DNA of 42,167 bases from a virus (lineage: Duplodnaviria; Caudoviricetes). Of the stretch, positions 1,280-7,200 are shown piece by piece. The notes under the pieces were generated by a model that saw only the letters and a program-made list of their open reading frames with translations, had not been told where the DNA came from and did no database searches. The stretch spans positions 1 through 42,167 of IMG/VR virus record IMGVR_UViG_3300032288_001600; one strand, given 5' to 3'. Position 1 is the stretch's first letter. Each line of letters begins with the position of its first letter. Both the position numbers and the translations under genes were made by a program.

Positions 1280-4200
1280 GTGGCAGACAACCCGTACTTC
1301 AAGCTCGTCGACCAAGACCTGGCTGCTGGCATCCCACCGGTGGTGCCCGCTGCCAATGACAACCCCTACATGGACTTGGCCAAGCAAGACTTGGAGCTGT
1401 CGCAGCAGCGCTTAAAGGGCGTGCTCGACATCGTCAGCCCGGTCAACCCGGATCACGCTGCCGAGGCTTTGAAGCTCTCGCGCACCAGCGGCTTGCCACA
1501 GCAAACCGTGCAGGACAACTTAGACGACGTGCGCCGCCAGGAGCGCGTGCGACTGCTCAATTTGCAGCGCATGATGGCCGACTCGCCCGTGCTGGCGCGT
1601 CAGTTGAACGACCCGGTGTTTGCCTCGATTGCCCAGGATCAAACCGAGCAGATGGGCAACATCGAAATGGCGAGCAGCTATGTGGGTCGCTCGTTGCAAT
1701 CGGGCGGCTTGCAGTTGACCGCAGCGGCCACCAAGCTCATGGAGTTTTTTACGCCGACCACGAGCGAAGAAGACTTAGCTACCCTGTTCAAGAACAACCC
1801 GGCAGGCTTGAAAGACATGCGCGAAAACGGCGCAGCCAGTGCGCTCTCGCGCTGGGCGCGTGCGCAGCAGACCATGGCCAACACGATCATGGAAGGCATG
1901 CCCGCCCAGGTCAAGGCCAAGTACGGCAACCTGGAATACCTCACCACCGACACCGACAACGCGGCCTACTTGTCACCGGTCAAGATGATCGGCGACGTGG
2001 TCAATTCACTGCCCACCACCATTGCGCTGATGGGCAGCATGTACCTCACCAAGAGCGCTGCCGGTAGCACGCTTGCACGCTTGGAGCCGTTGATTGGCCG
2101 CGAGGCCGCAATGCGCGAAGCCACCAAGGTTGCAGCCGAGACCATGGCCTACTACAGCGCCGTGTCGGAGGGTGCGGTGGGCTACGCCCAACAGACCAAC
2201 CAGACCCGTGCCGAGGTGGACAAGATCAGCCAGGCCACGCTGGAGAAGTCTCCCGCCTACCAGGATCTGGTCACCGTGCAGGGCTACTCGCCCGAAGCCG
2301 CACGCATTTATCTGTCCGCCACCACAGCAGAGAAGGCAGGCACGATGGCAGGTCTGGTGGACGCCATCACTAACTTCTACGGCGGTCGATTCCTGGGCAA
2401 GCTCATCAACGAGGGCGGCGCACTGGCTCCGCGCATCGGCAAGGGCTTCCTGACCGAGGGCTTGACCGAAGCGCCACAAAGCATGGGCGAGCAGTTTGCG
2501 CAGAACTTAGCCGTGCAGCAGGGCATGAACCCCGACCAGTCCTTGAGCGAGGGTGTGGGCGAGGCCGGAGCGGCAGGCTTCGTGGTGGGCGGCTTGACCG
2601 GTGGCGCATTCAGCGGCGTGTTTGGCCGTGCGCAAGAGACCGTCCAGCAGGGCCAGGAAAGCGCCATGCGGGCCAATCAGATGTTTGGCCTGCTCAACAG
2701 CTTGAACGATATGGCGAGCGCCAGCAAAGTGCGCGAGCGCGACGTGCAGACCTTCGAGGGCTTCATGCAATCCGTGGAGCAAGAGGCTGGTCCGGTCAAC
2801 ATGCTCTACATCGATCCCAAGACATTGGTGGAAACCCTGCAATCAGCCGGGGCCAACGTGCGCCAGGTGGCCGAAGGCTTGCCATCGATGGCCAACCTGG
2901 ACGAGCAGTTGAAAACCGGCACGCTGGTGGCCATTCCCGTGTCAGAGTTTGCCGCCCGCATCGCAGGCACAGACTACGCCCAAGCGCTGATGCCACACTT
3001 GCAAGGTGACCCCAGCGGCATGAGCAAGGTGCAGGCCGATGAGTTCATGCAAAACCACGGCGAGAACCTCAAGGCCGAAGTGGAAAAAGTCTTGGCCGAG
3101 CGCCAGGGCGATGAGGCTTTCAAAGGCTCGATGGAGAAGGTCAAGCAGCAGGTGCTCGATGAGATCACCAACACGCAGCGCTTCACCAAAGATGTGAACG
3201 AGAGCTACGCCACGCTGATGTCCACCTTCTACGGTGTGACCGCTGCCAAGCTGGGCATCACGCCAGAGGAGATGGCTGCACGCTATCCCATCAAGGTGAG
3301 CGCCGAGGGTGTTAACCAGGGCCAGCAGTACGACCAGGCAGGCAATCTCAAAACCGAGACGCCGCAGTTCAAGAGTTTCTTCGGCCAGAGCAAGGTGGTC
3401 GATGCCGCAGGCAATCCGCTGGTGGTCTATCACGGCACTCGACCTGGCAACGACATTGCGCAGTTTGAAGCTCCCAACAAACGCGATGGCATCTACTTCA
3501 CGCCAGATGCAAAGTATGCAGAGGGTTTCACCGAAGAGCTGTTCAGCAACTCAGAAGCAAAGGGCGCGATTTATCCGGTCTACCTCAGCGTGAAAAACCC
3601 GTATGTTGTTCGGGCGCAGGACATGGAGTCTGAAGAGGCCCAGAGCTTTTTGTATCGCGGCTTGAATCGCGCAGACCTTGAGGCTCAAGGATACGACGGT
3701 GCCATGCTCTACATCGGCGACGAGCTAGACCAAGTGATGGCCTTTAGCCCAGAGCAGATCAAGTCTGCCATCGGCAACAACGGCGACTTCGACGCGACCA
3801 ATCCCAACATCCTGATGCAGGACAACGAGGTGGCCAAGGAGTACGCCGAGGAAGACGCCAAGGAAGAGGAGATCTCCGACGACGTCGAGGCGGGCACGCA
3901 AGGCGTAGTGCCCACCACGGTGGACGACCAGGCCGTGCTGGACAGCACGTTGAAGCTCGCCAAGAGCAAGGTGTGGAACAAGGGCCGGGATCTGAAACTG
4001 GCCATCCAGGAAGCCGTCCAGAACGCCGCACAAGCCGCTGGCGTGGACGTGTCGCTACCATCCCCTCAGTCGACCGAATATCTCGTGCGCACGGGCGTGA
4101 AGGACGCCTTGTTCGCCCTTCAGCAAAACCCCAATGCCATCGGCTGGTACGACGTCAAGACACGCCAGGCGCTGTCGGTCATGTCCTTGGTGCACCCCGA

Positions 4201-7200
4201 GATCGCCACCGACCAGAATGCTCGCTTCGCATTTGTGTGGGCGCTGGCCGTGACCAGCAACGGCATGAAGGTGGGCAAGAACTTCGAGCTGGCCGAAGCG
4301 GCCTACGAGGCCTACAAGAAAACCGGCGCGATGCCTACCGACATCCAGGCAGGCCAGGCACAAAAGGCGATCAACGAATCGCTGGCGCTGTTCAATGAAC
4401 TAAAGGCTTCATGGGGCATCGATGACCTGCGCCGCTTCATGCTCACCAATTTCACCGTGGGCGAGATCGCGGCGATCAGCAAGGACTTGAAGCCCGGCGG
4501 CGAACACGCTGCCACCTTCGTCAAGGGTGCGGCCATCCTCGGCCCCAAGATCGGCAACGGGTTCTTCTCCAACCTGTACGGCAACTTCGATGCGCTCACC
4601 ATGGACCGCTGGTTGGTGCGCACCTGGGGCCGCTGGACCGGCACGCTGATCAAGCCCCAGCCAGTGCAAACTGCCAAAGCCCGCGAGCGCCTGAGTGCAG
4701 CGCGTGATGCCGTGGCGGGCGATGCCAAGCTGCAAGAGATTGTCGGCACGCAAATAACCAAGGACACGCCCGTCGACGAGCTGGCCGTGGCCATCCAAGA
4801 GGCCAGCACTGACCCCAAGCTGCGCTCGCAGATGAACGAAACCGAGGCAGGCACGGAGCTGCGCAAGGCGGGCAACAGCCTGGCCAAGTACCTCGATGGC
4901 CAAAAGGAAGCGCCAGCAGGCCCGAACGAGCGCAACTACATCCGCGCTGTGTTTGCCGACATGCTGGCCGAGCTGCAACAGCGCCCCGAGTACGCGGATC
5001 TGACCATGGCCGATTTGCAGGCCGTGCTCTGGTACGCCGAAAAGCGCCTGTACGAGACGGCAAAGTCTGATGTTGATGAGGAAGACGCAACAGAAGGGTA
5101 TACTGACGAGGACGCTCCTGACTACGCGAACGCCGCTGCTGCGGTGGCGCGTGCCAAGGGCGTGTCGGATCGCAAGATCCAGAACGCATTCAAGAAGGAA
5201 GAGCAAAATGGACGCACAGGAGATGCACGATCTGCGGATGTCGCAGGCCAAGCCCAAGCTGGCGGGCAGCAAGCCCAAGCTGTCGGCTTTACTGGCTCAG
5301 AAAAACGGCTCTTCGTCGGAGCCGTTGCAGTCCACCGCGCTCGATCCCACCGCGCAGGCAATGTCGAATCATCCGCAACTTACACGCGAGCAAGCGATAA
5401 AAGACGCGGAGACCCTGGGCTTCTAAAACCCAGATCCAAGAAAGACCTCGGCGTGACCTACACCGCCGAGTGGAAGCCCGGCAAATCCCTGGGCACAATC
5501 TTCAAAGCAAACGGCATTGCCACCCCGACGTTCTACGAACTTGTCCAGGGTGATGAGAAAAACGCACAGCGTTTTGCTGATGCCATCACTGCAAGCAAAC
5601 AAGCCAGCGGCGCAGTCGGTGCGGCGGTCTACGTCTACCCCACCCAGGACTACCAAGGCATGCGCCTGTTCTTGTCCAAGGACGGCAGCGCAGGTGTCGC
5701 GGTCAAAGCCGACGGCGACATCGTCTCCGTGTTTGCAAGCGGCGGGGCAGGGCGCTCGGTGATGGAGCTGGCGGTCGCAGTCGGTGGCACAAAGCTCGAC
5801 GCCTTCGACACTATCCTGCCCACCTACTACGCAGCGCACGGCTTTGTGGCCGCATCGCGTTTGGGCTGGGACGACTCCCAAGCGCCCGAGGGCTGGAGCA
5901 AAGAGGCGCTCGCACGCTACAACAAGGGCGAGCCAGACGTGGTGTTCATGGTGTTGGACAAGGCCTACATGAATGGCTACAGCATCAAGGACGGCAAGCG
6001 CTTGACCGACTACGACAAGGCCGTGGCCACGCAAGAGCGTTTGGTCAAGAAGTTGGCTCCGCTCAACGCGACGCTCTACCAGGGTGAGGAAGCCGCACGC
6101 GGCAAGATCGCCTTCGGCCAGGACATCACGCAAACGCCCAGCGTCATCACGCTCTTCAAGTCGGCCAACCTGTCCACGTTCTTGCACGAGTCTGGGCACT
6201 TCTTCCTCGAGGTCACCGCTGACATTGCCTCGCGTCCCGATGCGCCGAAGGAAATCCAGGACGACATGCAGACCATCTTGAAATGGTTTGGCGTGCAGGA
6301 TCTGGCCACCTGGAAGGCGATGGACCTCGAGGCGCGTCGTCCGTTGCACGAGAAGTTCGCACGCGGGTTTGAGGCCTACCTCTTCGAGGGCAAGTCGCCC
6401 AGCATGGAATTGAACGGCATCTTCCAGCGCTTCCGCGCCTGGCTGGTCAACGTCTACAAGCAAGTGGCCAAGCTCAACGTCGAGATCGATGACGAGATCC
6501 GTGGCGTGTTTGATCGCATGGTGGCCAGCACTGAGGCGATCCAAGAAGCCGAGCAGGCCCGCACCTACGTGCCACTGTTTACCACCAAGCCGCCCTTCAT
6601 GACCGATGAGGAGTGGCTGGCCTACCAGCAGTCCGACGCACAAGCCTCGCAAGACGCGGTGCAATACCTCGAGCAGCGATCTTTGCGCGACATGCAGTGG
6701 GTGTCCAACGCCAAGGCGCGTTTGATGAAGGCCATGCAAAAGGAGAACAGCGCCACACGCAAGGACGTGCGCCGCGAGGTCGAAACCGAGGTGATGGCCG
6801 AGCCGGTCTACCGTGCTCGCGAATTCTTGAAGCGCGGCACGGTCGATGGCCAGCCGGTCGAGGGCGGCTACAAGCTCTCCATCGCTGAGATCGAGTCCAT
6901 GTACGGGGACAACCCCATCGTGGGCATGATCAAAGAGCGCCTGGGCTTTGGCAAGTACGGGATGCTCGGCACAGACAACGGCATTCACCCCCAGCAGGTG
7001 GCCGACATGTTTGGCTTCAGCTCCGGTGACCACCTGGTGCGCTCGCTCCTGGAAGCGCCCGACCCTGCCGGTGTGATCAACGAGCGCACGGACGCTCGCA
7101 TGCTGGAGCGCTACGGCGATTTGAACAGCCCCGAGGCGCTGTCCAAAGCAGCCGACGAGGCCATCCACAACGACGCACGCGCCAAGTTCGTGGCCACCGA

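Follow-up and report, generated by a model that had tools for sequence, protein, structure and literature searches.

The embedded spanins Rz/Rz1 of lambda exemplify small functional partners whose gene lies inside a larger phage gene, in its +1 frame, and GNAT enzymes serve as toxins in type II toxin–antitoxin systems, in which the antitoxin carries a ribbon-helix-helix (RHH) DNA-binding domain. MuF polymorphic toxins are virion-associated proteins whose variable effector domain has a small gene as its partner; in the part of the survey by Jamet et al. (2017) used here, the small gene is an ORF of its own, located after the toxin gene, in 89.4% of 191 cases (PMC5576092). The Rpn toxin has an intragenic antitoxin, RpnS, a small inhibitor encoded as a gene within a gene with an internal ribosome-binding site, and extra separate antitoxin copies also occur in this system (Koonin commentary, PMC10400984); the Rpn/RpnS study itself is that of Zhong et al. 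(PMC10327210). Phage polyvalent proteins, as described in passages of Iyer et al. (2017, PMC5512222), include a phage GNAT family next to ART domains. The word 'overlap' does not occur in the main text of that paper, and 12 passages from it contain neither nested genes nor per-domain inhibitors. A phage GNAT acting on the host is known from the phiKMV-like phage LUZ19, the Rac acetyltransferase of which acetylates host proteins (PMC7552054, in part).

Here we describe a small gene nested in a polyvalent gene of a 42-kb phage record, the whole of which (42,167 nucleotides) we call the window. The record is about 98% complete and has podophage-type head genes elsewhere in its sequence. The carrier gene encodes LPD22, ART-PolyVal and GNAT domains and an HExxH motif, as do the proteins in those passages of PMC5512222. 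As in the MuF systems covered by the excerpted survey, a small gene partners a variable effector domain of a virion-associated protein, and a GNAT of this type is also found in three Microbacterium phage minor capsid proteins. Co-occurrence with one effector domain and the existence of orphan copies likewise correspond to the MuF type. By contrast, the small gene is not a stand-alone ORF placed right after a C-terminal toxin, the arrangement reported in that survey: it lies upstream of an internal effector domain, out of frame and inside the carrier gene. This nested upstream position means that an internal domain can have a partner. Whereas RpnS is in frame, forms the toxin's own C terminus and belongs to bacterial defence (PMC10400984), the gene described here is in the +1 frame, has a separate sequence unrelated to that of its presumed partner and lies on the phage side. 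Rac is encoded by a free-standing gene, and the available part of PMC7552054 mentions no inhibitor; domain B, in contrast, sits inside a giant gene. We conclude by analogy that the small gene resembles one half of a toxin–immunity pair, yet it falls outside both the positional definition of MuF systems and the in-frame definition of Rpn. The lambda spanins differ from it in being a lysis lipoprotein pair with no effector–inhibitor relation and no host capture. We did not find nested genes in polyvalent virion proteins described in the literature, of which subscription journals were poorly covered, and an out-of-frame partner gene nested upstream of an effector domain would be a new variant of the toxin–immunity kind. 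The features discussed below are collected in Table 1.

Table 1 Features of the window and of related loci (positions without a locus prefix are those of the window)
Feature	Position	Strand	Basis or remark
Host frame: giant polyvalent gene for a virion (ejection-type) protein of 2871 aa	1202..9817	+	Pfam LPD22, ART-PolyVal; PHROG 9880; podophage head genes in window
ART-PolyVal domain	3401..3790	+	Control domain; lacks a conserved nested gene; swapped for other DNA in a relative
Upstream domain A, DUF7178 look-alike	4070..5206	+	HhH-GPD label unconfirmed; not the partner of the small gene
Shine-Dalgarno (SD)-like AAGGAAGAG of nested gene	5195..5203	+	SD-like motif ahead of the start in 15/23 aligned homologues
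Host-frame 'linker' overlapping nested gene	5207..5428	+	Lowest GC3 in host gene; poor codon fit
Nested +1-frame gene, 72 aa	5208..5426	+	Predicted four short helices, no compact core
Most conserved C-terminal module of small protein	5343..5423	+	DP....M..HPGLTRE.A..MA..GF; tandem-repeated in some free-standing proteins
Downstream GNAT-fold domain B, inferred partner	5447..6076	+	Structure model, fold matches, co-occurrence
Second +1 family, 62 aa	L132:2850-3038; also L136, L138, L140, L233-L267; DC33 L312:6850-7038		
47-aa +1 ORF, unannotated	L313:2298-2441 (Barnstormer)		Inside minor capsid gene, before GNAT domain

The nested frame and its conservation

The nested frame opens with an ATG at 5208 and closes with a TAA at 5424–5426, confirming an earlier note on this DNA that had described a 72-codon +1 ORF with an RBS-like sequence upstream. 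Among ATG-started +1 and +2 ORFs of at least 30 amino acids in this gene, this start is the only one that matches our list of SD motifs. Across the overlap, GC3 of the host frame is 32/74 (0.43), lower than in any other window of the gene (mean 0.81, s.d. 0.08); from the amino acids, 58.8/74 would be expected, and none of 20,000 resamplings was as low (minimum 44). GC3 of the nested frame is 0.76, so that the hand counts of the earlier note, about 44% and below the flanks for the host and about 76% for the nested frame, were close to the measured values. No sigma-70-like promoter was detected in positions 4700–5800 of the window. That the +1 frame is open carries no significance by itself, as 93% of synonymous host-codon resamplings remain open, and the case for a nested gene therefore rests on homologues. 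Longer versions starting at 5070 or 5076 were rejected, since neither start has an SD and many homologues have a +1 stop just ahead of the aligned ATG.

We fetched loci by domain (75 with the upstream and 54 with the downstream domain) and built a codon alignment of the window and 22 hand-picked diverse loci having both domains (23 sequences). The start codon occupies one column in all 23 (22 ATG, 1 GTG), and all 23 share the terminal stop. There are no +1 stops in 1,662 overlap codons, compared with 101/3,145 and 82/4,335 in the two flanks. The earlier note had named the loss of the RBS or ATG and +1 stops in homologues as evidence against a gene; starts and open frames are retained throughout, whereas an SD-like motif, counted by eye, is missing in 8/23. 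Synonymous divergence of the host frame is 0.25 in the overlap and 0.57 ± 0.016 in the flank null (0/300 resamples), a reduction that the same note had suggested looking for. Amino acid identity in the overlap is higher for the +1 protein (0.49) than for the host frame (0.43), the reverse of the flanks (0.31–0.32 versus 0.62–0.68). The nested frame has a codon fit (CAI) of 0.55, higher than in any of 234 shadow-frame windows, whereas the host frame reaches 0.29. These comparisons indicate that the nested ORF is almost certainly a real gene and that both frames of the overlap are, as judged from sequence, under selection. Of the two frames, that of the small gene is probably older, as its codons match the usage of the carrier gene and those of the host 'linker' do not.

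A profile made from 16 sequences of the small protein matches 248 clusters at 50% identity, which supplies the homologues that the earlier note had proposed to seek; among the 150 clusters listed, most are 60–100 aa long. A search with the single sequence retrieved only 2 close relatives, and the deep alignment of the family is too variable for locus search. Conservation is concentrated in the C-terminal module. The protein is lysine-rich, with K32 kept in 73% of 128 sequences, and its model consists of four short helices with no compact core (pTM 0.36). As regards a possible RHH fold, the model is all-helical and has no strand, and the protein has no match in Pfam or PHROGs; the best Foldseek match of the model against the PDB has an E value of 4.9. 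Among Atlas features, the best match (0.82) is unnamed, and the nearest named ones are scaffold proteins at 0.75–0.76, which is chance level.

In L044 (3861–3863) and L050, which lie outside the 23-sequence alignment and on the same contigs as L096 and L092, a stop interrupts the host frame where the overlap ends, and the nested frame continues for 10 codons, as a natural variant or an assembly error. A deletion in L007 (1204–1506) has left the upstream domain continuous with the nested frame; this too may be natural or an assembly artefact.

Neighbouring domains and further nested ORFs

The small gene lies between two domains that the earlier note had labelled HhH-GPD-like and GNAT-like. The first label was not confirmed: domain A has no Pfam match and no PDB sequence match below E 0.9; its Atlas look-alike is DUF7178 in 25/30 matches. 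The second was borne out by the predicted model of domain B (pLDDT 96.5) and structure comparison. The best VIA match is 1y9k (Z 10.5, r.m.s.d. 2.8, 129 aligned), the best 50 VIA matches are all acetyltransferase-type entries and the best Foldseek E value is 1.2e-3; no Pfam GNAT match was found in 45 members. Viral fold matches comprise polyvalent proteins and Pseudomonas phage proteins (LKD16, MPK6 and Alpheus). On the predicted structure, domain B belongs to the GNAT fold, with acyl-CoA-dependent transfer as its putative activity.

To identify which domain the small gene follows, we used 129 loci picked by domain rather than by peptide, which form 47 clusters at 85%. The small gene is present in 25/25 clusters with both domains (24 clearly, L117 weakly), in up to 9 of 13 GNAT-only clusters and in none of the 7 informative clusters with only the upstream domain (9 in total, 2 truncated), and domain A was rejected as the partner on this count. 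The GNAT-only cases comprise 3 clear ones, called by a profile that does not contain them, and 6 weak, position-matched +1 ORFs, 5 of which rank in the top 5 of 312 segments (E 3e-4 to 0.8) although their similarity is weak. No partner was detected in the other 4 GNAT-only clusters (L109, L121, MuF-fused L126 and solo L127), beside the further MuF-fused copies L128 and L129, or beside the solo GNAT of a Streptomyces phage (L314), the one examined of 158 such records. All 63 loci fetched with the peptide are phage; 62 have domain B, and the remaining contig ends 70 nt past the peptide. We conclude from this distribution that the small gene accompanies the GNAT domain in carrier proteins that differ from one another. 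The expectation that it travels with a domain when modules are swapped was thus correct, with the downstream GNAT rather than the upstream domain as partner. Such co-inheritance with domain B can arise from physical linkage alone.

The ART-PolyVal domain served as a control. A +1 ORF over it (3402–3593) was rejected, with stops in 24/28 distinct homologues and no shared peptide; the domain is without a conserved nested gene, which shows that such genes do not accompany every domain. This region of the window (3336–3818) shows a second GC3 dip (0.60), and a close relative has about 448 other bases in its place, a clean module swap. In four loci (L053:3561, L057:2236, L060:3630 and L067:3561), the upstream domain is followed by a peptidase-like domain, and the linker shares a different, acidic +1 ORF with an EVDWDLL motif.

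A survey of 208 long frames in the fetched loci for further nested ORFs yielded a second, unrelated +1 family, a 62-aa gene with a strong SD and a dip in host GC3. It lies directly before another unnamed domain, which has no Pfam match and looks ART-like to us. Other +1 ORFs occur ahead of the same ART-like domain type in L202/L206 and L074, and single candidates with an SD are found in polyvalent linkers of L073 (3585–3737 and from 4113), L116 (2617–2778) and L303 (upstream of an ART domain). Both nested families are present, unannotated, inside one CDS annotated as hypothetical in the cultured Limnohabitans phage DC33 (PQ492659.1). The available part of the DC33 paper (PMC12195039) has no occurrence of 'overlap', 'polyvalent' or 'proteom'. 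DC33 is reported to be lytic, and a need for self-protection is therefore not obvious. The GenBank taxonomy line of PQ492659.1 reads Inoviridae, whereas the paper describes a short-tailed dsDNA Caudoviricetes phage. In the Microbacterium phages Barnstormer, UtzChips and Caron, a GNAT domain ends the minor capsid protein, and an unrelated 47-aa +1 ORF with an SD lies just before it. Between Barnstormer and Caron, host third positions differ at 3/48 sites in the overlap versus 40/275 and 29/202 in the flanks.

Copies outside the giant phage gene

Scanning three collections for the motif, we obtained 27 loci. In 10 of these, the gene is nested before a GNAT domain; the other 17, which we call orphans, have no giant frame and no intact GNAT. 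The old host frame has acquired stops inside the gene in 7/17 orphans (up to 8–9 stops), and in others a fossil of it ends 5–42 codons later. One orphan (L207), 318 bp long, has 94% identity to a phage locus (L089) and covers no more than the gene, 50 nt upstream and 37 nt downstream. Genome sampling added orphans in G391, G058, G612 and G538 at low rates (3/401, 3/301, 2/401 and 2/401 genomes, each including the seed genome, with two matches doubtful). Two orphans are frameshifted (L205 and L212). We rejected G1215/L311, which matches at E 8e-4 inside a long unrelated ORF, and left G1017/L310 as doubtful.

The genomic settings of the orphans vary. They include a type I-E cas (CRISPR) operon (G003), a type I restriction and integrase island (G058, a partial copy with a decayed GNAT start), AAA_25 primase elements (G391, G538 and L210) and tRNA genes (G612, G005, L208 and L211); others adjoin ordinary genes, such as that for a TonB receptor. 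GNAT-domain matches are absent from all 7 orphan-bearing genomes, which are MAGs and may be incomplete, and present in both of the 2 genomes with nested copies. The gene occurs as two tandem copies in G612 and as three tandem modules in G538. Two or three tandem C-terminal modules or tandem gene copies were also seen in P0095, P0141 and P0142, and in L219, L231 and L230/L232.

We built a tree from 33 nested copies and the 15 orphans whose start is clean; it has few columns and weak resolution. The orphans require at least 4 and about 10 changes of label, and a single orphan clade is rejected (AU p about 1e-77). Orphan–orphan dN/dS values are 0.17, 0.06, 0.22 and 0.6; two further pairs are saturated and one has no synonymous change. 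By these sequence measures, the orphans are polyphyletic, with dN/dS mostly below 1, and the small gene has left the phage gene repeatedly and persists alone in bacterial DNA.

A candidate inhibitor of the GNAT domain

We propose that the small protein is an inhibitor of GNAT domain B and that hosts and satellites capture its gene, a reading to which we assign a probability of about 0.55. The GNAT domain would be packaged, injected and acetylate a host protein early in infection, a role as effector on host proteins that we infer by analogy with the polyvalent proteins of PMC5512222 and with Rac (PMC7552054). The small protein would be translated from the same late mRNA via its own ribosome-binding site, bind the GNAT domain during synthesis of the giant protein and keep the newly made enzyme quiet during assembly; once it was stripped, or if it was left unpackaged, the injected enzyme would be active. 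Small gene and GNAT would form one cassette, and bacteria or integrated primase–integrase elements that picked up the small gene alone would make the cell ready in advance for the injected enzyme. Retention together with one enzyme in phage and also in isolation, in part next to defence loci, is what immunity genes show; it is a poor fit for an activator or a chaperone. The retention of orphans in bacterial genomes without a GNAT lends the immunity idea indirect support.

Several other readings have to be weighed against inhibition. Orphans that are selected without a GNAT, solo and MuF-fused GNAT relatives that lack the small gene and the physical nature of the linkage would all agree with an independent accessory factor, for superinfection exclusion or host modulation, that rides with the GNAT on one recombining cassette and is kept by bacteria for that activity. 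We regard this as unlikely, because the upstream domain, although equally adjacent, never keeps the small gene (0/7), because a different nested ORF takes the same place before the GNAT of actinophage minor capsid proteins and because two domain types each have a nested family of their own. If the small protein aided the GNAT as a positive cofactor or a targeting adaptor, or served it as a decoy substrate, rather than blocking it as an antitoxin, the same co-occurrence would be seen, and the abundance of lysine, the retention of K32 and the short, apparently flexible helices of the model would suit such a role. Yet an activator would be useless to a genome that lacks the enzyme, where orphans are nevertheless kept under selection, and a decoy would still act as an inhibitor; we consider this reading improbable.

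A chaperone role, which the earlier note had also raised, though for a toxic domain, would have the small protein assist in folding or packaging the giant virion protein; this fares worse still and is in our view quite improbable. The gene follows one swappable domain and not the carrier protein, and the orphans persist in bacterial loci without virion genes; co-expression from a late gene would be natural for a chaperone, and scaffold proteins are its nearest named Atlas clusters, although at chance level. Least credible is that no protein is made and that the signal reflects linker composition or an RNA element. The open frame expected from the host residues is compatible with this, but start, stop and amino acid motif have been conserved in spite of drift in the host frame, and orphans maintain the +1 frame with dN/dS below 1 while the old host frame gathers stops. 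On such sequence comparisons, this reading appears largely refuted already.

More tentatively, polyvalent virion-injected proteins may in general be built of effector cassettes, each with an antidote overprinted just upstream, and bacteria and satellites may repeatedly capture these antidotes as a new class of anti-phage defence. A nested inhibitor would, if real, explain how a phage can make and package a host-directed enzyme without poisoning its own production, and some low-complexity linkers of polyvalent proteins would be the out-of-frame shadow of genes that annotation misses. The orphans suggest a route to defence in which the phage's own antidote is captured, by way of genes of about 70 codons that catalogues would miss.
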